Source: Patescibacteria group bacterium
Lineage (GTDB): Bacteria > Patescibacteriota > Patescibacteriia > UBA9934 > GWF2-40-263
NCBI GenBank assembly: GCA_041661745.1
Contig: JBAZTR010000003.1
Span: 11,965 to 75,964 of the forward strand
Reading direction: 5' to 3'
DNA: 64,000 nucleotides
The notes below the pieces were generated by a model. It was not told the DNA's origin, did not search any database, and saw nothing but the letters and a program-made list of their open reading frames with translations. This document shows, piece by piece, positions 5,809 to 61,612 of the stretch. Made by a program: the position numbers and the translations under genes. The first letter of the stretch is position 1, and each line of letters opens with the position of its first letter.

Positions 5809-6612
5809 TTATTTTTTAAACAATAACGAAAACAACTTTAACCAATCGTTCGGGGTCAAATTTTCCGCTCTGGATTTTTCGTCCAAAGCGATTTTTTTAA
5901 GAGTTTCTTTGGCTTTTTCTGAGGAACAGACTTTGGTCTTAGCTAAATTGCCATGCAATTGTTTTCGACGAGAGGAAAAGCCAGCTTTCACAATTTTTAA
6001 AACCTCTTCCGGATCAATACCACCCAACCGTTCGGTTCTTAGGTCTAATCGAACCACAGTGGAATCAACTTTCGGCGGTGGATTAAAGGCGCCGCGCTTA
6101 ACTTGCATCATTTTTTTGCCTTCAGCATACAGCTGACAAGCAATGGAAAGAACACTGGTCTTGGGCGGAACCGCCAACAAACGATCGGCGACTTCGCGCT
6201 GAACCATTAAGGTTAAACGCTTTGGCCGCGGTTTGACAGTAAATAACTTTTCCAAAATCGGCGAAGTAATGTTGTATGGAATGTTGGCAACAACAGAATA
6301 ATCTTTATTAATAACACGACGGAGTTCTTTCCAAACTTCGTCAGACAAAATATCACCGTAAACTAACCTCACCCCGTCCCTCTCCTTCGTAAGGAGAGGG
6401 AGAATTCGTTGCAATGGTTCAATTAGATCTTTGTCGGCTTCCACGGCCACAACCTTGGCCCCGGCCTCAAGCAAGGCCGTTGTCAAACTTCCCCGCCCCG
6501 GGCCTATTTCTAATATCAAATCGCCGGCCTTAACGCCGGCCGCTTCAACAATTTTACGGACAATATTTTTGTCCGTAAGAAAATTCTGCCCAAAAGATTT
6601 TTTGGCTCTCAT
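5809..6612 (-). CDS. rsmA: 16S rRNA (adenine1518/1519-N6)-dimethyltransferase RsmA/KsgA
   Basis: SFGQNFL and LEIGPGRGSLT motifs; NIPYNITSPIL. Contains an in-frame GC-rich palindrome (see repeat 6367-6401). Confidence 0.9.
   Translation of the reverse strand: MRAKKSFGQNFLTDKNIVRKIVEAAGVKAGDLILEIGPGRGSLTTALLEAGAKVVAVEADKDLIEPLQRILPLLTKERDGVRLVYGDILSDEVWKELRRVINKDYSVVANIPYNITSPILEKLFTVKPRPKRLTLMVQREVADRLLAVPPKTSVLSIACQLYAEGKKMMQVKRGAFNPPPKVDSTVVRLDLRTERLGGIDPEEVLKIVKAGFSSRRKQLHGNLAKTKVCSSEKAKETLKKIALDEKSRAENLTPNDWLKLFSLLFKK
6367..6401. repeat. GC-rich palindromic mini-element inside ksgA: CCTCACCCC GT CCCTCTCCTT cgt AAGGAGAGGG (10-bp stem, 3-nt loop)
   Basis: Perfect inverted repeat 6378-6387 / 6391-6400. 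Near-identical copy in opposite orientation in valS (24849-24883). Translates in-frame as ILPLLTKERDGVR. Confidence 0.75.
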
Positions 6613-13513: not shown

Positions 13514-14788
13514 TCAACTATTAATTTGCTGGTTAGTGGGCTTGGAGATAACCACCAAAACCACGGCCACTAGGGCCAAACCAGCCCACTGGCTCCAAAG
13601 ATAATGATCAAAGACACCGAGAACAGCAAGAGAAACAAGGGGACTAAGGGACGGGAGAGACTGAAGAGACTGGCCGGAAAAAAGTACCCACAAAAAATAG
13701 ATTAAAAAAACCAAACCCAATAAACCAGTCTCAGCAAAGAAAAGAAGGTAGGAATTGTGCATTGGTTGATACGACCAGACCGGTTGGCCGGGATAAAGTT
13801 TTTCTAAAGCTAGAGTGTAGGCACCTGGACCAACACCGACAAACGGATTTGTTTTTATTACTTCGCCGATCATGTGATACTCACTCTGCCGTTCCGTTAA
13901 CGATTGTTCTTCCAAACGATCGGCCGCGGCCACGCGAGTAAAAACCGCGTCGGAAAATAGGGCAAGCGGAGCGGCCGCGGCCAAAATGACAATAATCAAA
14001 CCAAGTAAAAATTTTTGCGGTATTTTTTTTCTGGAAATAACACTGCTGACAAAAAAGAAAATTATTCCGACAATCAAAGCCAACCAGGCCGAACGGGAAA
14101 ATGTCACTACCAAAGTTGATGACAATAAAACCAGGATCGCCACAAGAGCTGGCCGCTTTGAAAATCGTAACAAAATCATCATCACGACCACGGCCAAATA
14201 TCCACCAAAAATATTCGGGTGGGCGAAAGTGCCATAGGCCCGCATCAAACGCTCGCCAATTACTTCAACCACCGAGGTGCCGGGCGTTGCCGCCAAATGT
14301 TCGGCTAAACCGAACAGGGTCGAAGCCGGACTGACACCAACAAAAACTTGCCACCAACCAATAAGACTCGGCACAATCAGCCCAAGCGAAAAAAACCAAA
14401 TAATTTTTCTAGTCTCGATTCGTTCATCAAGCAAAAGCCAAAACAAAAGCAGGGCGGAAAAAAGATGAAAAAGAAAAGCCCCGGACAAATAAAAATTTAT
14501 TGATAAAAAAGAAACAAAAACCGTGGCCGCAAAAAACAACCAAAGGGTGGCCATTATTTTTTTAGTCGTCTCGTTCTTCTTCGCTTCCCATCTCAACAAA
14601 ACAGCAACAACAATTAAGGCTTGAACAGCATAATGGGTCATCTTACCGTACTCCCACCCTTCCCCGCCGAAGGTTCCGAGCCCGGTCGAGGAGTTAAGGG
14701 TCAGTGAATTATAAATCCACACTGTCTGCCACGGCAGAAGAAACAAACAAAGATAGGTTAAAAAATTAGCTAGCTCCGTACGCTTCAT
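13514..14788 (-). CDS. O-antigen ligase/polymerase family (Wzy_C-like) polytopic membrane protein
   Basis: At least 10 TM segments; FSRSAWLALIVG motif typical of the O-antigen ligase domain. Confidence 0.7.
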   Translation of the reverse strand: MKRTELANFLTYLCLFLLPWQTVWIYNSLTLNSSTGLGTFGGEGWEYGKMTHYAVQALIVVAVLLRWEAKKNETTKKIMATLWLFFAATVFVSFLSINFYLSGAFLFHLFSALLLFWLLLDERIETRKIIWFFSLGLIVPSLIGWWQVFVGVSPASTLFGLAEHLAATPGTSVVEVIGERLMRAYGTFAHPNIFGGYLAVVVMMILLRFSKRPALVAILVLLSSTLVVTFSRSAWLALIVGIIFFFVSSVISRKKIPQKFLLGLIIVILAAAAPLALFSDAVFTRVAAADRLEEQSLTERQSEYHMIGEVIKTNPFVGVGPGAYTLALEKLYPGQPVWSYQPMHNSYLLFFAETGLLGLVFLIYFLWVLFSGQSLQSLPSLSPLVSLAVLGVFDHYLWSQWAGLALVAVVLVVISKPTNQQINS

Positions 14789-15719
14789 AAATTTTTTTCC
14801 ATTCGTCGCGAAAATGGGCGCGACGGTCGTTTAGATGAAATTTAAGAACACTGTCAGAAACAACAACTCGCGAATCTAGATTAGCCGCGTTTTTTATTGG
14901 TTCGGGGAGAAACTTTTGCTGAAAACGTTTGGCTAGGGTTTCGAGAAAATCCCCCACCCCTTTTCGCCACGTCTGGTGGGGCGACCTTCCCCTCCCCCGG
15001 GGTTGGGAGGGGACCAGAAATGCATTTGGTAAAAAATTAAAAGCCCAGTTATTTTTTTCGTTAAGACGGTTTTGAATTTCATCGCGATCAAAAACCGGAA
15101 CAAGCGAAGCTAGCCAATAAGCCATGTACGGATCCCCTTCGGACAAAAGAAGATCTTTTAAAGATAAATTTTCGTCAGTAACAAAAAAGGAAAAACAGAA
15201 CGGATCAACGGTTGTTTGCTTCGGTCGACGGCCGAGCAGACGGAATGGTGTCACCAGCAAAAGCCGGGTTAGCCAAATTGTCCCTGGCGAAACAACAATA
15301 AACAAATCAATATCACTTTCCGGTGCCGTGTGATGCCAGGCTAAAGTATTGCAAGCAAAAACCGCCCGGACAAAAGGGAAAAAAGAAAAATATTTAGCCG
15401 CCCACCCAAGTTTTTTAAACTTGCGGGCCGCATCCAAAAAACGTTCCTGATGAGTGGCAATAATACCTTCAGCTGAACGGCCGCCCAAAACGAATAAACC
15501 TTCTTTGGCCTCCAGTCGACCACGAAGCCAAAGGCTGGTTCGCAGAGTTTCCTCAACTTCGGCAAATGAACTTTTTACTCCCAACCACTTCCAGATATCA
15601 AAGGCAGTTAAGGGATAATCAAAAAGCGAAAACCAAGCCACGGTTTTGACGATGCCGGCTTCTAGAACTGATGGTTTGACCTGATCCATACGCAGGTATC
15701 TTATCACGCCCAAAATCAA
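14766..15719 (-). CDS. Hypothetical protein with a nucleotidyltransferase-like DIDLFIVV motif
   Basis: 317 aa. Carries the in-frame GC-rich palindromic insert at 14951-15014, encoding ..SQPRGRGRSPHQTWRKGVGDF.. Confidence 0.45.
   Translation of the reverse strand: MILGVIRYLRMDQVKPSVLEAGIVKTVAWFSLFDYPLTAFDIWKWLGVKSSFAEVEETLRTSLWLRGRLEAKEGLFVLGGRSAEGIIATHQERFLDAARKFKKLGWAAKYFSFFPFVRAVFACNTLAWHHTAPESDIDLFIVVSPGTIWLTRLLLVTPFRLLGRRPKQTTVDPFCFSFFVTDENLSLKDLLLSEGDPYMAYWLASLVPVFDRDEIQNRLNEKNNWAFNFLPNAFLVPSQPRGRGRSPHQTWRKGVGDFLETLAKRFQQKFLPEPIKNAANLDSRVVVSDSVLKFHLNDRRAHFRDEWKKIYEAYGAS
14951..15014. repeat. GC-rich double-hairpin element inside a coding sequence (CCCCACC..GGTGGGG and CCCCTCCC ccggggtt GGGAGGGG)
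   Basis: Far more G+C-rich than the surrounding gene. The reading frame is maintained. Confidence 0.65.
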
Positions 15720-22883: not shown

Positions 22884-24074
22884 TTATCGAACTACTCTAA
22901 CAAATCCACGCTTGCCTTTTTGTACCACGATTCCTTTCGGCACGACAAAGTCATAAGATTTAACGACTTCCCCATCAACCTTAACCCCGCCACCATCAAT
23001 TAAACGGCGAGCCTCGCCTTTGGAAGCAGCTAACTTGGTTTCCACAAGGACATCGATAACATTCATTGAACCAGAAATTTTAACTTCCGAAATTTCCTCG
23101 GGGATTTCTTTGTCGCGGAACATTTTATCGAAATTGGCTTGTGCCTCGGTTGCAGCTTTTTCAGAATGAAAAATTTTGACCACTTCAAAAGCCAAACGAG
23201 CTTTTTGATCGCGCGGATTGGCCATTTCTTTTTTTAATGCGGTAATTTCTTCCGAAGCTACGTCGGTAATTAACTCGAAACCTCCGTCGATCATTTCATC
23301 TGGCCAACTCATGATTTTGCCAAACATTTCATCAGCTGAATCCATGAGGGTAATCATGTTGCCTTCGCTCTTCCCCATCTTCTTACCAGTCGGATCGGTC
23401 AGAAGTTTCATAGTCATGACAAACTTTTCTTTTTTCTTCAAAATCTTCATCAAATCCCGCCCGGCCAACATGTTGAAAGTCTGATCGTTCCCGCCGATTT
23501 CACCATCGACATCCATTGCCACAGAATCGTAAGCTTGCATTAAAGGATACAAAAATTCATGAAGATGAATCGGTTTGCCTTCGGACATGCGTTTTTGAAA
23601 CATGTCGCGCTCAAGCATTTGTTGAACTGTAAAGTTGGAGGCCAATCCGACCACATCAACAAAGGACATTTTGGCCAACCATTTGCTATTAAACTTAATA
23701 ATGGCCGAATTTTTTCCAGAAAAAGAAATAAATTTCGAAGCTTGTTTTTTGTACAACTTACAATTAGCCAAAACTTGTTTTCTGGTAAGCATTTGGCGCG
23801 TGGCCGACTTGTCGGTAGGGTCGCCGATCGTGCCGGTAAAATCACCAATAAGAAGAACGACTTTGTGGCCAAGCTCTTGAAACAACTTAAGCTTGCGCAA
23901 GTTAATGGCGTGTCCCAAGTGAAGGGTTGGGCCGGTCGGATCGATACCAAGATATAAAGTCAGCGGCTCTTTACCCATTAATTTGGCACGGAGAAAATCG
24001 GCTGTGGGATAAACATTTTCCACGCCGCGAGTTAGAAGCTGATTTATTTTATTTTGGTCATGGATAGGTTTCAT
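22884..24074 (-). CDS. tyrS: Tyrosine--tRNA ligase
   Basis: LYLGIDPTGPTLHLGHA (HIGH), KMGKS, C-terminal S4 domain. Confidence 0.9.
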   Translation of the reverse strand: MKPIHDQNKINQLLTRGVENVYPTADFLRAKLMGKEPLTLYLGIDPTGPTLHLGHAINLRKLKLFQELGHKVVLLIGDFTGTIGDPTDKSATRQMLTRKQVLANCKLYKKQASKFISFSGKNSAIIKFNSKWLAKMSFVDVVGLASNFTVQQMLERDMFQKRMSEGKPIHLHEFLYPLMQAYDSVAMDVDGEIGGNDQTFNMLAGRDLMKILKKKEKFVMTMKLLTDPTGKKMGKSEGNMITLMDSADEMFGKIMSWPDEMIDGGFELITDVASEEITALKKEMANPRDQKARLAFEVVKIFHSEKAATEAQANFDKMFRDKEIPEEISEVKISGSMNVIDVLVETKLAASKGEARRLIDGGGVKVDGEVVKSYDFVVPKGIVVQKGKRGFVRVVR

Positions 24075-26722
24075 AGAGTGGAAATTTGTTGGTTCAAGGC
24101 TTCGGCTTTTTTGGCCGCCTCGTCCCGTTTTTGTTTCATGTCCTCGACTACTTTAGCCGGGGCTTTGGAAATAAATTCCTGGTTGGCAAGTTTGCCATCG
24201 AGACTGACAATATATTTTTTGGCTTCTTCAAGTTCAACAGACAAACGTTCGCGCTCTTTACCGGCGTCAATTTGACGATCAACTTTAAATTGATAATCAA
24301 ACGAGCCGTCTTTATTTTCCTCAATCACGAGATTTTCCACGCGCGACAAAGTTTTGATAATTTCAAGATTAATTTCGTCTTTAAAAATTTCAAAATATTC
24401 GCCAACAATAAGGGTCACATTAATTTTTTCTTTTGGTTCAACCTTGTTCTCGGCACGCCAGTTACGAAGTTTCTCGATTATTTCTCTCAAGCGTTCAAAT
24501 TCGGTATTGTTTTGTTTTGAAACCTTTACCTCCGGCCAATCATGAACAATCAACATTTTATCTGAGCCAAAATTGCTCCAAAGCTCTTCGGTCACAAACG
24601 GCATGAATGGATGCCACAAAACCAAAACTTGTTCCAAAACGTAAAGAAGAATCTCGTCGGTATTTTTCTCGAGTTTGGAATCCTTTCGTTGAATCTTGGC
24701 GATTTCCAAATACCAATCAGCCAATTCGCTCCAAGTAAAATCACGAAGAACTTCACCAGCTTGCGAGAACTCATATTTTTCCAAGTGATTGGTAACTTTT
24801 TCCGTCACCTCGGACAAACGACCAAGAATCCAATTATCGGCTAGTGTCATTGGGTTCGCCCTCTCCCTGAGGGAGAGGGTTGGGGTGAGGGATGTGGTTG
24901 TCAAAACAAAACGTGAAATGTTCCACAACTTATTTGTAAAGTTACGGAAGCCGGCAATCTTCTCTTCGTACATTTTGAAGTCATTGCCCGGACTGGTACC
25001 AATAACCATCGAAAGTCGCACTGCGTCAGCTCCGTACTTTTCAACCATCTCAATGGGGTCAATAGCATTGCCGGCTGACTTTGACATCTTCTTCCCGGCT
25101 TCGTCGCGAACAAGGCCGTGCAAATAAACATTTTTAAACGGTACTTCGCCAAGAGTGTAAGTGGTCATGAGAATCATGCGGGCGACCCAAAAGAAAATAA
25201 TGTCATAACCGGTCTCGAGGACAGTGGTCGGATGATACATTTCAAAATCTTCGGTCTTGTTCGGCCAACCGAGAGTGGAGAAAGTCCATAGGCCAGAAGA
25301 AAACCAAGTGTCGAGAGTATCCTCGTCGCGTTTCCAATCGTCACCAGGCGCTTCTGAACCAATATTAATTTCGTCGCCGCGATACCAAACCGGCACTTGA
25401 TGCCCAAACCAAATCTGACGACTAATATTCCAATCACGCAAGTTATCAATCCAATGAAAATACGTGCCGACGAATTGTTCGGGAATAATTTTTATCTGAT
25501 TAGAACACACCACGTGCTGCATTAGCTCTTTCAAAGTAATTTCCTGATCATCTTTCAAACCTTCGATCGGCGCGTGTTTCGAAGCGTGGAACTTGAACGG
25601 TTTATTTACACCAATAAACCATTGAAGTTTAGGTAACGGTTCAACCGCTGCACCACAACGATAACAAACCGAAAGATTTTGCGGCGTTTCTTCTTCTTTT
25701 TCAATCAACCCCTCGTTTCGCAGTTGCTCAATAATTTTTTCTCGGGCTTCAAGGACCGACAAACCAGCAAAAGCTCCGGCTTCGGCAGTCATAACGCCGT
25801 CTTCCCCGATCACAGTTATAACTGGCAAATTATTTTTCTGTGCCATCTCGGCGTCGATTTGACTGTGAGCCGGGGTAACCCCAAGCGCGCCGGTTCCGAA
25901 AGCCGGATCAACAGCTGAATCGGCAATAACTTTTATGGAAAGTTTTTGACCAACAAAATTCGCTTCAAGTGTTTGCCCGATAAATTTCTGGTAATGTTCA
26001 TCATCAGGATGAACAGCCACGGCCGTATCACCAAGTTTAGTTTCCGGACGTGTTGTAGAAATGGAGATTGGAAAATTTTTGTCGTATTTAAAAGTATAAA
26101 ACTTGGCAGTTGTTTCCTTGTGTTCCACTTCATCATCAGCCAAAGTTGATTTGCAACGCGGGCACCAGTTGATAACGCGGTGACCACGGTAAATCAAACC
26201 ATCGTCATACATCATTTTAAAAACTGTGTTGACAGCTTTGTTTCGGTCTTCGTCCAAAGTGTAACACTCACGCGACCAGTCGAGCGAAGCCCCCATTTTT
26301 TTAATTTGATGAACAATGGTGTCGTGCGAGGCCGCGGCAAACTTTTTTACTTCTTCAAGAAAAGCTTCACGCCCAAGTTCGCGGCGCGGATCTTTCATGC
26401 CTTTTTTAATAAGTTCTTTTTCAACCTTGGTTTGAGTGGCAATAGCCGCATGATCAGTGCCAGGAATCCAAAGAGCCCGTTTTCCCTGCATGCGAGCAAA
26501 ACGAGTCATGGTGTCCTCTAGGGCCAACATTGAAGCGTGACCCAGGTGAAGAATACCGGTGACATTAGGCGGTGGCAGAACCATGGAAAAAGTTTCTTTG
26601 CGCTTTTCAAGATCAGGCAGGTTTTCCGGACGAAAAAAACCGCTCTTTTCCCAAGCGGCATAAATATTGTCCTCATGATTTTGCGGCTCGTAAGCCTTGG
26701 GGAGGTCTGGTTGATTGGGCAT
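24071..26722 (-). CDS. valS: Valine--tRNA ligase
   Basis: PPNVTGILHLGHA, KMSKSAGN, editing domain, C-terminal coiled coil. 4-nt overlap with tyrS. Confidence 0.95.
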   Translation of the reverse strand: MPNQPDLPKAYEPQNHEDNIYAAWEKSGFFRPENLPDLEKRKETFSMVLPPPNVTGILHLGHASMLALEDTMTRFARMQGKRALWIPGTDHAAIATQTKVEKELIKKGMKDPRRELGREAFLEEVKKFAAASHDTIVHQIKKMGASLDWSRECYTLDEDRNKAVNTVFKMMYDDGLIYRGHRVINWCPRCKSTLADDEVEHKETTAKFYTFKYDKNFPISISTTRPETKLGDTAVAVHPDDEHYQKFIGQTLEANFVGQKLSIKVIADSAVDPAFGTGALGVTPAHSQIDAEMAQKNNLPVITVIGEDGVMTAEAGAFAGLSVLEAREKIIEQLRNEGLIEKEEETPQNLSVCYRCGAAVEPLPKLQWFIGVNKPFKFHASKHAPIEGLKDDQEITLKELMQHVVCSNQIKIIPEQFVGTYFHWIDNLRDWNISRQIWFGHQVPVWYRGDEINIGSEAPGDDWKRDEDTLDTWFSSGLWTFSTLGWPNKTEDFEMYHPTTVLETGYDIIFFWVARMILMTTYTLGEVPFKNVYLHGLVRDEAGKKMSKSAGNAIDPIEMVEKYGADAVRLSMVIGTSPGNDFKMYEEKIAGFRNFTNKLWNISRFVLTTTSLTPTLSLRERANPMTLADNWILGRLSEVTEKVTNHLEKYEFSQAGEVLRDFTWSELADWYLEIAKIQRKDSKLEKNTDEILLYVLEQVLVLWHPFMPFVTEELWSNFGSDKMLIVHDWPEVKVSKQNNTEFERLREIIEKLRNWRAENKVEPKEKINVTLIVGEYFEIFKDEINLEIIKTLSRVENLVIEENKDGSFDYQFKVDRQIDAGKERERLSVELEEAKKYIVSLDGKLANQEFISKAPAKVVEDMKQKRDEAAKKAEALNQQISTL
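24849..24883. repeat. GC-rich palindromic mini-element inside valS (CCCTCTCCC tga GGGAGAGGG TTGGGGTGAGGGA), same family as 6367-6401 but in opposite orientation
   Basis: Encodes SLTPTLSLRERA in-frame within a variable linker. Confidence 0.75.
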
Positions 26723-35579: not shown

Positions 35580-35656
35580 TGGTGGGCCCACCTGGACTCG
35601 AACCAGGAACCTCCGAGGTATAAGCTCGATGCTCTAACCAGTTGAGCTATAGGCCC
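35580..35656 (-). tRNA. tRNA-Ile with anticodon UAU (reads AUA), encoded CCA
   Basis: GGGCCTA acceptor with U6-G67 wobble pair, anticodon stem TCGAG/CTCGG, loop C-U-UAU-A-C, T-loop TTCGAGT. Confidence 0.8.
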
Positions 35657-40570: not shown

Positions 40571-40642
40571 ACTCCCTTCCGCCAACCACTGGGAAGTGAC
40601 TGAAAGAAGGGGGCCGTCGAATTCGCTTTCGACGGGAAGATG
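40571..40642. repeat. Repeat element R_X (CTCCCTTCCGCCAACCACT...GAAGGGGG GCCGTCGAATTCGCTTTCGACGG GAAGATGG), 3' of island gene A
   Basis: The 5' half recurs at 41065-41112 and the hairpin half at 41879-41911. Confidence 0.7.
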
Positions 40643-40661
40643 GTTAGCGACCTTACGTTGA

Positions 40662-41039
40662 CTACAATTCCGCGGTCTCGATCGAGACGCGGATGAGCCG
40701 AACGTAACGGTCAAAGGCGAAGACCGCCCGGCCGGCCTCGTCGGTGCCGGCGACGATCAACCGCCCGGTCGCGTCGCGCTTGAACTCGGCGCGGAGCAGC
40801 GGGAAGGTGATTTCGCTGCGGGCCCCGAGGAGGCGCGCGAGGATCGGGAGAGGGGCGACCACTTCGGCCGCCACAACCTCGCCGACCTCGGCCGCCAACC
40901 GAGCCACCGTTCCGATGGGGTCGTCGCCAAAGGCGACGTCCATCGTGACGATTTCGAGGTCAATGCCGAACTTGGCACGGAGCCAGTCTTCGGCCGCGGG
41001 GAGGACGGGGTGACGGGTGATTCGGAGGAATTTGGACAT
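40662..41039 (-). CDS. Hypothetical protein A (125 aa) of the high-GC cassette array
   Basis: AGGAG 7 nt before the ATG. GC3-rich codons. 3' end encoded by a 14-bp palindrome GTCTCGATCGAGAC. Confidence 0.5.
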   Translation of the reverse strand: MSKFLRITRHPVLPAAEDWLRAKFGIDLEIVTMDVAFGDDPIGTVARLAAEVGEVVAAEVVAPLPILARLLGARSEITFPLLRAEFKRDATGRLIVAGTDEAGRAVFAFDRYVRLIRVSIETAEL

Positions 41040-41064
41040 GAGGAACTCCTAGGTTTGTTTTTCT

Positions 41065-41112
41065 CCCTTCCGCCAACCACTCGAGAGTGATTAGAAAAAG
41101 GGAGCTGTCGTG
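41065..41112. repeat. Repeat element R_Y (CTCCCTTCCGCCAACCACTCGAGAGTGATTAGAAAAAGGGAGCTGTCG)
   Basis: About 80% identical to the 5' half of R_X. Confidence 0.7.
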
Positions 41113-41234
41113 GAACAAGTACGATCCACAACAGGACGATTGTTTGGCCTTCCGCCCCCGCGGGCTAGGCTATACCTCCATTAAAGGTTAGGGGTTAAAG
41201 ATGGGCCGACCCGGCCGCCTTTCGGAGTTACCTC

Positions 41235-41723
41235 CTACTTGGCAGCCGATGCCGTTTTGGCCGGAGCCGAAGCCGCCCGCTTGGCCGCGGCCGAGCTGAT
41301 GCCAGACGCCTCGAGGGCGGCCGCCATCTTCTCGGCATTGGCCTCCGCCTCGATGCGCGCGGTGAGGCGGGCGGCGTGAGCCACCGCAACCTCGAGCCGC
41401 GCGACGCTGCGTCGGTGGGCCTCGAGAACCTCGACCAGCCGATTGGCCGCCAGTCGCTTGGCCGCAAGGGCCTCGCGACGAGCAGCTTCGGCGGCCCGCC
41501 CTTCCGCGATCGGCGCCTGGCGGGCAGCCGACCTCTGGAAGGCGGCGTCGGCCGCGACAAAGGCGGCGTCGGCATTCCGGCTTTCGACCTCGCGGTCGAA
41601 GAGGCGTGCCTCGACAGCCTTGAGGTCGGCCTGAGCCGGTCTCACCGCGAGCTTGATCTGGCGGTGGAGCTCGTCGGCCGGGGTAACGACGCGAGGGGCA
41701 CGGACAATACGAGCATGGAACAT
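41235..41723 (-). CDS. Ala/Arg-rich coiled-coil protein B (162 aa) of the high-GC cassette array
   Basis: AGGAGA 6 nt before ATG 41723. MFHARIVRAPRVV... The longer ORF-track versions (41846 start, or the Arg/Gly-rich alternate frame) are rejected. Confidence 0.5.
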   Translation of the reverse strand: MFHARIVRAPRVVTPADELHRQIKLAVRPAQADLKAVEARLFDREVESRNADAAFVAADAAFQRSAARQAPIAEGRAAEAARREALAAKRLAANRLVEVLEAHRRSVARLEVAVAHAARLTARIEAEANAEKMAAALEASGISSAAAKRAASAPAKTASAAK

Positions 41724-61430: not shown

Positions 61431-61505
61431 TGGTGGACCAGAGCGGGATCGAACCGCTGACCTCCTGCTTGCAAAGCAGGCATTCTACCACTGAACTACT
61501 GGCCC
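61431..61505 (-). tRNA. tRNA-Ala (anticodon TGC), G3-U70 identity pair, encoded CCA
   Basis: GGGCCAG acceptor, anticodon arm CCTGC-TTTGCAA-GCAGG, T-loop TTCGATC. Confidence 0.9.
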
Positions 61506-61554: not shown

Positions 61555-61612
61555 CTGCCCCGCCTCGCTGCGCTCGGACGGGGTCCCGCCATAGGCGGGA
61601 AACTACTGGCCC
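61555..61612. repeat. GC-rich hairpins (CCCCGCC..GGACGGGG; TCCCGCC ata GGCGGGA) followed by a 12-nt duplicate of the tRNA-Ala 5' end (AACTACTGGCCC, also at 61494-61505)
   Basis: Seen directly in the sequence. Confidence 0.6.

Follow-up and report, generated by a model that had tools for sequence, protein, structure and literature searches.

In-frame BoxC-type elements in ksgA and valS of a Patescibacteria genome, and the association of the motif with YcjD-like DUF559 nuclease genes

Rickettsia palindromic elements (RPEs), reportedly described by Ogata et al. in 2000 and 2002, are 100-150 bp long, Rickettsia-specific and AT-richer. Another short repeat, first catalogued in E. coli, has been on record for about 30 years without a function or a mechanism of mobility, and its distribution was assumed to be intergenic and proteobacterial; Salmonella is reported to lack it. 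This repeat has successively been called BoxC, PIT element and TM_ECO (PMC4666352). Here we examine a 64,000-nt stretch of a Patescibacteria group bacterium (assembly GCA_041661745.1, contig JBAZTR010000003.1, positions 11,965 to 75,964; hereafter the window), in which two short GC-rich elements lie in frame inside the housekeeping genes ksgA and valS. Judged by their sequences, both are almost certainly copies of BoxC/PIT/TM_ECO, and across bacteria this motif is associated with genes of the YcjD-like DUF559 family.

TM_ECO was defined as an 'intrastrand triplex motif' of the pattern CCCTCNCCC-N3-6-GGGNGAGGG-N3-GGGNGAGGG, and 3610 copies were counted in 262 proteobacterial genomes, all 23 copies of E. 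coli MG1655 being intergenic (PMC4666352). The single strand forms a triplex in vitro, PIT elements have neither promoter nor terminator activity, and the motif is linked to raised local sequence turnover and instability (PMC4666352). Kaplan et al. (2016) described the same motif as a G-quadruplex/hairpin switch (HPGQ; PMC5100583), and in Enterobacter sp. 638 the hairpin was counted 100 times, with a terminator role proposed for intergenic copies (PMC2869309). As for DUF559, this domain forms one PD-(D/E)XK clade with VSR and DUF2726, which includes a group I intron homing endonuclease, and a Vsr-like homing endonuclease, I-Bth0305I, is on record (PMC3424549 and reference cited there). DUF559 proteins are also among the enriched targets of programmed inversion, which implies that their genes are flanked by inverted repeats (PMC9881135). 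No link between DUF559 or YcjD and BoxC was found in the papers searched, which for DUF559 were the titles and abstracts retrieved together with PMC3424549 and PMC9881135.

The ksgA element is a solo copy on the minus strand at 6365-6401 (6367-6401 when read on the plus strand), in frame within a ksgA/rsmA gene that encodes a 267-residue RrnaAD/KsgA protein (5809-6612, minus strand; PF00398, E=6.8e-54). On the plus strand, 6367-6401 reads CCTCACCCC-GT-CCCTCTCCTT-cgt-AAGGAGAGGG. In the sense (minus) direction, a C-arm (CCCTCTCCTT, 6400-6391) is followed by a loop, a G-arm (AAGGAGAGGG, 6387-6378), the spacer AC and a third block (GGGGTGAGG+TT, 6375-6365); the ksgA variant carries a triple A-to-T extension (AAGGAGAGGG / GGGTGAGGTT). 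The encoded peptide is ILPLLTKERDGVR for 6367-6401 and LPLLTKERDGVR for the 6365-6401 element. The valS element, likewise solo and in frame, lies on the plus strand at 24859-24892 and reads CCCTCTCCC-tga-GGGAGAGGG-TT-GGGGTGAGGGA, with the C-arm at 24859-24867, the loop TGA, the G-arm at 24871-24879, the spacer TT and the third block GGGGTGAGGG at 24882-24891. Its host gene (24071-26722, minus strand) encodes an 883-residue valyl-tRNA synthetase (ValRS) and holds the element in a variable linker; the sense strand is the C-rich complement of the element and encodes the peptide SLTPTLSLRERA. A preliminary description of this DNA had recognised the valS element correctly and placed it at 24849-24883, about 10 nt lower than its true span. 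The two elements are 34-37 nt long, have opposite orientations and are identical in all three blocks (9+8+8 nt).

A third element at 14951-15014, related and rearranged, lies in frame in a variable segment of a conserved Patescibacteria hypothetical gene (317 residues, 14766-15719, minus strand, no Pfam match). Its double hairpin and open frame are as first described: one hairpin, TCCCCTCCC..GGGAGGGGA, spans 14988-15013, and a presumed third block lies about 30 nt away, at 14951-14960 (complement CCCCCACCCC), and has gained a partner of its own, GGTGGGG (14975-14981). By resemblance only, it is arguably a member of a sister subtype, CCCCTCCC / GGGAGGGG / GGGGTGGGG, which also flanks DUF559 genes elsewhere (e.g. 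loci L270, L277 and L283).

The G+C contents of the three elements are 0.63, 0.68 and 0.73, versus 0.44-0.45 in the host genes. Element hairpins have DNA folding energies of -10 to -11 kcal/mol (z = -3.2 to -4.7), and the overall fold of 14951-15014 is ordinary for its composition (z = -0.97). C-rich polypyrimidine/polypurine hairpins occur at exactly three sites in the 64 kb (6378, 14988 and 24859), compared with an average of 0.27 in mononucleotide shuffles. For the two search patterns, dinucleotide-preserving shuffles of the window gave 0.08 and 0.00 expected matches, so that the earlier view of chance as a negligible source was borne out, as were the sequences, peptides and G+C contrast given for the ksgA and valS elements. 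An Rfam scan of the window at gathering thresholds returned five tRNAs only and nothing at the elements, and no further copy of the motif was present in about 9 kb past one end of the window.

The valS copy fits the TM_ECO pattern exactly (CCCTCTCCC-TGA-GGGAGAGGG-TTG-GGGTGAGGG) and is identical at 32/34 nt to MG1655 TM_ECO copy no. 17 (CCCTCTCCCTGAGGGAGAGGGTTAGGGTGAGGGG), only 2/34 positions being different. The ksgA copy fits with one triplet altered in register in all blocks (CCCTCTCCT-TACGA-AGGAGAGGG-ACG-GGGTGAGGT), and TM_ECO membership permits one mismatched triplet. BoxC is a repeat, and the 64 kb hold two canonical copies and one related copy. Intergenic location is a typical, not a defining, trait of BoxC, and every window copy lies inside an open reading frame (ORF). 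The elements had been presented as a family of palindromes residing in ORFs, a behaviour not known from this kind of genome. They are neither a new lineage-specific family nor simple palindromes: they belong to a known repeat (PMC4666352) that we find in many phyla, they comprise three blocks (C-arm, G-arm and a mirror third block), and copies lie in ORFs of other phyla as well.

The distribution of the motif was assessed with an exact pattern of 25 specified bases in a one-genome-per-species collection. The pattern matched at least 120 genome stretches from at least 15 phyla, isolate genomes included; these phyla comprise Pseudomonadota, Bacteroidota, Chloroflexota, Planctomycetota, Cyanobacteriota, Verrucomicrobiota, Acidobacteriota, Gemmatimonadota, Thermodesulfobacteriota, Armatimonadota, Bipolaricaulota, Omnitrophota and others. 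Matches were also present in a Bifidobacterium metagenome-assembled genome (MAG), in a MAG of Nomurabacteria, which belong to the candidate phyla radiation (CPR), and on at least 120 IMG/VR contigs. Among the motif-selected loci, copies lie inside ORFs for AlaRS (L069), Mfd (L006, two copies), an HsdR-like protein (L046), a restriction-modification enzyme (L054), a C-N hydrolase (L012) and LeuRS (L039). The motif is poor in stop codons: over 318 copies, 92.5% of frames stay open with the C-rich strand as sense and 63% with the G-rich strand as sense, compared with 55% for random 34-mers at 45% G+C. The lower value for the G-rich strand arises because one frame always hits TGA.

Within one genome the motif can be part of a longer local repeat. 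It recurs every 78 nt in a tandem array of a Bacteroidales MAG (L017, 61-251) and every ~151 nt in one of Pseudomonas crudilactis (L009, 421-755). A CRISPR-like reading of these arrays was rejected since the intervening sequence is conserved too, which makes them tandem repeats of longer units, specific to their lineages, that contain the motif.

We are confident that the motif and YcjD-like DUF559 genes are associated. In the LeuRS locus, a DUF559 domain (PF04480, E=5.9e-35) lies in frame within the synthetase, flanked by two inverted copies of the motif. A DUF559 ORF was present in 8/120 motif-selected genome loci and 2/120 viral loci; all 10 were 7-203 nt from a motif and mostly between inverted copies. 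By a rough reckoning, in which motif +/-203 nt covers ~7.5% of 1.86 Mb, the chance of 10/10 is ~1e-11. For the reverse comparison, 80 metagenome loci were selected by similarity to a six-sequence DUF559 alignment headed by E. coli YcjD. A C-rich pyrimidine/purine hairpin lay within 300 nt in 76/80 of these loci and on both sides in 48/80; the hairpin was of BoxC type in 53/80, and the full three-block TM_ECO pattern was present in 33/80. Hairpin density was 4.18/kb near DUF559 and 0.048/kb beyond 600 nt, a difference of ~88-fold. IMG/VR loci replicated this result, with the hairpin at 11/12 loci of close relatives, 23/32 of medium relatives and 0/21 of distant DUF559-like genes.

About 11/89 DUF559 copies form one continuous reading frame with a host gene. 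Hosts of in-frame motif-DUF559-motif cassettes that were confirmed with Pfam are MetRS, LeuRS, RecG and a DEAH/HrpA-type helicase; the MetRS cassettes, three betaproteobacterial cases, lie between the anticodon and tRNA_bind domains. Among solved structures, 3HRL ('endonuclease-like protein') is the closest to YcjD. The ycjD gene of E. coli MG1655 (b1289, 'DUF559 domain-containing protein') adjoins fabI and is followed by a BoxC copy 168 nt past its stop codon; BoxC was presumably first noticed in this envM/fabI region. When ycjD plus BoxC served as the query for the E. coli pangenome, at least 80% of the region was matched in 3377/5426 genomes, a figure that is uninformative on whether ycjD goes together with BoxC number. 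In ETEC6 (NZ_CP041627.1, 1404778-1406205) IS1 splits ycjD. Some O157:H7 and other E. coli genomes match just the BoxC part of the query, and ycjD may be absent or divergent in them.

The subtype of the motif differs with the DUF559 lineage, examples being CCCTCTCCC/GGGAGAGGG/GGGTGAGGG, CCTTCCCCC/GGGGGAAGG/GGATGGGGG and CCCCTCCC/GGGAGGGG/GGGGAGGG, and between subtypes a change in one block goes with changes in the other two. In motifs with a recognisable third block and a G-arm that lacks mirror symmetry, the third block is the mirror of the G-arm 207 times and its direct repeat 9 times. The third-block base that faces an A of the G-arm is T in 91 cases, A in 89, G in 9 and C in 8 (A or T in 180/197). 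Antiparallel purine-motif triplexes allow the A.A-T and T.A-T triads; under neutral decay, A-to-G changes would be favoured instead. The KsgA-site elements of the window (CCCTCTCCTT / AAGGAGAGGG / GGGGTGAGGTT) and of orthologue P0003 (TCCCCTCCTT / AAGGAGGGGG / GGGGGGTGGTT) differ by a T-A.T to C-G.G replacement in register in all three blocks. A triplex-compatible constraint on the motif is thus supported by covariation. The covariation of the mirror block is comparative evidence that such a constraint acts in vivo, and it supports the structure proposed on the basis of in vitro work; it does not follow that a triplex forms in cells.

Orthologue comparisons show that the window copies are derived, not ancestral, and we hold this with high confidence. 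In the AlphaFold2 model of KsgA (mean pLDDT 92), the ksgA peptide falls between helix 61-70 and strand 81-85, in a loop whose residues 71-80 (pLDDT 69) are the sole internal low-confidence stretch. Most KsgA orthologues read '..PLKEKFGDKIxLIxGDIL' where the window has the element. The window and six relatives carry Pro/Leu..Gly/Arg-rich replacements at exactly the same spot, each one different, and in P0002 a truncated, decayed copy occupies the same junction. Alignment with the ksgA DNA of P0004 shows that ~27 nt were overwritten, with a net gain of 18 nt (~6 residues). The valS element sits in a linker of variable length that connects the catalytic core (..KLWNISRFVL) to the anticodon-binding domain (TLADNWIL..), with a net gain of ~3 residues. 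Most ValRS orthologues have plain linkers here. In an 82%-identical one the site holds a diverged copy whose orientation is unchanged and whose stem is broken; decay of the copy at this site is seen in P0122. The third host gene has ~6 extra residues that are common only to one 74%-identical relative. The elements thus do occupy variable linkers of housekeeping proteins whose orthologues have none, or decayed or different versions. The orthologue alignment that had been suggested as a test of insertion supports secondary gain but not clean insertion, the linker being overwritten.

In neighbour-joining bootstraps of KsgA with the element removed, the bearer P0002 paired with the empty P0009 as its sister in 99/100 replicates, P0015 fell inside an otherwise empty clade in 96/100 and the five closest bearers were monophyletic in 0/100. 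A single ancestral KsgA insertion is therefore rejected for the sampled tree. As an overwritten linker cannot return to KEKFGDKI by simple loss, we read the patchy KsgA pattern as the outcome of several gains at a single site or of allele exchange there. The derived, polymorphic and decaying state of the copies argues against selection for a function of individual copies.

Behaviour like that of RPEs, which had been suggested for the window elements, extends to relatives, in which we found further in-frame copies and a second kind of palindrome in KsgA. The ValRS of L126 has a BoxC-like in-frame element (PSPLDPLPQGGRGEE) at a second site, where the window has none, and a Wzy_C gene of L329 has an in-frame copy that is not in the window. 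A 28-nt GTAG-tagged REP-like palindrome, GTAGGGGTGAATGGCCATTCGCCCCTAC, lies in frame (..VGVNGHSPL..) at another KsgA loop of the Uhrbacteria-like relatives P0009 (L329:10001-10813), P0014, P0016 and P0020, so these CPR genes host more than one kind of palindromic insert; neither GTAGGGG nor CCCCTAC occurs in the 64-kb window. In P0003 and P0013, KsgA has an 8-residue insert (KAPQLGSG / QAPRLGSG) within the GPGxG loop that binds S-adenosylmethionine (L330:8736-9620), and no clear palindrome was found in its DNA. In the ValRS of P0123 (L126:837-3533) the linker that carries the window element holds a (GGGGTT)n run with the peptide GGWGLGVGDGD.

We consider it probable that the window elements are solo copies of BoxC and that this family is the cis partner of YcjD-like DUF559 (Vsr-like PD-(D/E)XK) nuclease genes. 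The motif, composed of a C-rich arm, a complementary G-rich arm and a G/T-rich mirror of the G-arm, can fold as a hairpin and, when single-stranded, as a purine-motif intrastrand triplex. Two inverted copies bracket the nuclease ORF, the cassette itself often being in frame in host genes. On the analogy of REP/REPIN and RAYT, the nuclease would recognise the folded motif and promote its copying, and copies could be placed, through break repair, at new sites or in empty alleles. Dispersed solo copies, both window ones included, would then be non-autonomous derivatives from this genome, an ancestor or a donor. The ksgA and valS copies reached surface linkers of housekeeping proteins secondarily, in a Patescibacteria genome that is Uhrbacteria-like to judge by the sources of identical and related proteins; they replaced a few codons and decay after arrival. 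Such copies may persist because the motif is nearly stop-free, because linkers tolerate Pro/Leu/Gly/Arg-rich peptides and because a window that is ~89% covered by non-overlapping long ORFs leaves few other sites. The parts of this explanation differ in strength. Mobilisation of the motif by the nuclease, argued from analogy, falls slightly short of probable, and its extension to the window copies is distinctly doubtful. Tentative, too, and a little less plausible than mobilisation as such, is the broader proposal that BoxC and YcjD-like DUF559 form a pan-bacterial RAYT/REPIN-like system, in which a small PD-(D/E)XK nuclease would recognise the hairpin- or triplex-folding 34-nt motif and, through break-induced copying or homing, spread it along with the nuclease gene, frequently in frame within loops of essential proteins (aminoacyl-tRNA synthetases, helicases, KsgA).

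Several points weigh against this explanation. DUF559 is not known to have transposition or cleavage chemistry. The association could also arise if the nuclease gene does not move the motif but targets it or takes it as a regulatory signal. The DUF559 queries besides YcjD came from motif-bearing loci and the 80 loci were ranked by YcjD similarity, which means that the association is established just for the YcjD-like subfamily; E. coli ycjD itself has the motif on one side only. Motif flanks differ between lineages across the at least 120 stretches. The tree of KsgA genes has little depth, and what looks like repeated gain could come from exchange of alleles. The window copies lack the cassette layout, with inverted copies and DUF559 within ~300 nt: searches found DUF559 neither in the 64-kb window nor in ~9 kb beyond it or ~70 kb of close relatives (best hmmsearch E value for the window and relatives' loci, 0.46), so the ksgA and valS copies are solo. 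No direct repeat or target-site duplication flanks either copy (..aaactaa-element-agaattc.. and ..gggttcg-element-tgtggtt..). In E. coli, no mobility genes were reported near the copies, and no triplex was detectable in vivo (PMC4666352).

Some of the same observations would be expected of the principal rival, in which the motif is selfish or accidental DNA driven by its structure without a dedicated enzyme. A motif prone to form a hairpin, triplex or G-quadruplex would stall replication and then pass between sites, through copying or conversion, as a result of template switching, slippage and gene conversion, and DUF559 genes would merely be attracted to the motifs, home into them or use them as signals. 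The reported local instability without nearby mobility genes (PMC4666352), solo copies that overwrite sequence and lack target-site duplications, the (GGGGTT)n tract in the same ValRS linker of a neighbouring lineage and the failure to find DUF559 near the window copies all fit this account. It leaves unexplained, however, a near-identical sequence of 25-34 nt in at least 15 phyla, the ~88-fold concentration at one nuclease subfamily with 0/21 at distant relatives, and the regular inverted-pair layout around the ORF; we regard it as unlikely. A benefit to the host, through an mRNA hairpin that affects translational pausing or stability or through a Pro/Leu/Gly/Arg peptide selected in KsgA and ValRS, would agree with the retention of frame in essential genes, with the element at the same site in the 82%-identical ValRS and with the terminator role proposed for intergenic Enterobacter copies (PMC2869309). 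Yet the peptides from the two orientations are unrelated, the hairpins of P0002 and P0122 are decaying, the majority of orthologues manage without elements, PIT elements lack promoter and terminator activity (PMC4666352) and the same motif occurs in unrelated genes and intergenic DNA of many phyla, which renders this account improbable.

Mobilisation of a repetitive extragenic palindrome (REP/REPIN) by a RAYT (Y1 HUH transposase), or of a miniature inverted-repeat transposable element (MITE) by the transposase of an insertion sequence (IS), is very improbable. In its favour, the elements are short GC-rich palindromic repeats, at times in inverted doublets, and the GTAG-tagged palindrome in a relative's KsgA is a true REP-like sequence. 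The RAYT/REP reading was nevertheless rejected on the lack of a GTAG/CGTC tag in the ksgA and valS copies, and the MITE reading on the lack of flanking direct repeats; no terminal inverted repeat extends past the motif, and inverted copies enclose a DUF559 gene instead of one for a Y1 transposase. No RAYT or IS transposase was seen in the 10 DUF559-bearing motif loci; the window was not covered by a RAYT profile search. Least credible of all is an origin by chance, by ancestral sequence or by misassembly. The elements are short and MAG-derived, but shuffles predict at most 0.08 matches, an identical KsgA protein is present in independent assemblies from two samples as well as in NCBI and JGI records, the reading frames are intact and orthologues without the elements exist.

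Other features of the window and its surroundings were recorded. Two adjacent GC hairpins at 61555-61600, in the leader of tRNA-Ala (61431-61505, minus strand), had been counted with the elements; they were rejected as BoxC family members since they lack polypurine/polypyrimidine asymmetry. A promoter-like site (61655-61627, minus strand) lies on the other side of these hairpins from the tRNA. The region 40600-41600 has many runs of at least 78% G+C and overlapping ORFs on both strands (~56% G+C in the 40-42 kb bin vs 45.6% in the whole window) and may be foreign or unusual coding DNA. A tRNA-Ile with the anticodon TAT (UAU), an uncommon bacterial means of reading AUA, is encoded at 35580-35656. 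A giant ORF of ~3100-3270 residues with a faint CBM_4_9 match lies two genes downstream of ksgA and is conserved in the L121, L123, L124 and L329 loci of this CPR lineage.

The analysis shows the presence of the motif in essential genes of a reduced CPR genome and in many phyla, its repeated tolerance in frame, and its tight tie to one nuclease family that includes E. coli YcjD. The real value of the observation lies in connecting a repeat and a nuclease family that are both orphans: the nature of BoxC and the role of DUF559 become one direct bench question, the action of YcjD on BoxC DNA. For annotation and phylogenomics, GC-rich in-frame inserts and DUF559 domains in aminoacyl-tRNA synthetases, RecG, HrpA and KsgA are to be treated as parasitic rather than lineage-defining. 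If the proposed BoxC-DUF559 system is real, it would give a function both to a repeat on record from the 1990s onwards and to DUF559, a large domain of unknown function, and it would constitute a new class of non-spliced, in-frame selfish insertion.

Compared with described systems, the window elements share with BoxC the sequence family, the three-block architecture, the occurrence in both orientations and the local sequence turnover. They differ in that BoxC has been described as proteobacterial and, in E. coli, exclusively intergenic, whereas the window copies are in frame in essential genes of Patescibacteria. Like RPEs, they are palindromic, lie in frame at variable, tolerant positions of ORFs, add peptides at tolerant surface positions and vary in presence among orthologues. 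Judged by length, composition and distribution, membership of the RPE family is not supported, since the motif is 34 nt long rather than 100-150 bp, rich in C/G tracts and found in many phyla. Homing endonucleases and inteins offer a nuclease ORF inside conserved genes (aminoacyl-tRNA synthetases, helicases) with the host frame kept and a fold of the VSR/DUF559 clade, and the recurrence at one KsgA site resembles homing; in contrast to them, the DUF559 cassette appears to remain in the protein, and the solo 34-nt copies encode no enzyme; no splicing motif of an intein or intron was noticed, although no search aimed at one was made. REP/REPIN-RAYT systems (PMC3116915) resemble the present one in having a short GC-rich structured repeat with many dispersed copies and doublets, inverted copies that flank a usually single-copy nuclease-type gene, and subtypes that seem to follow the lineage of that gene. 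They differ from it in the GTAG/CGTC tag and the Y1 HUH enzyme, in place of which the BoxC motif has a third mirror block and a PD-(D/E)XK DUF559 partner, with copies and whole cassettes in frame in ORFs.

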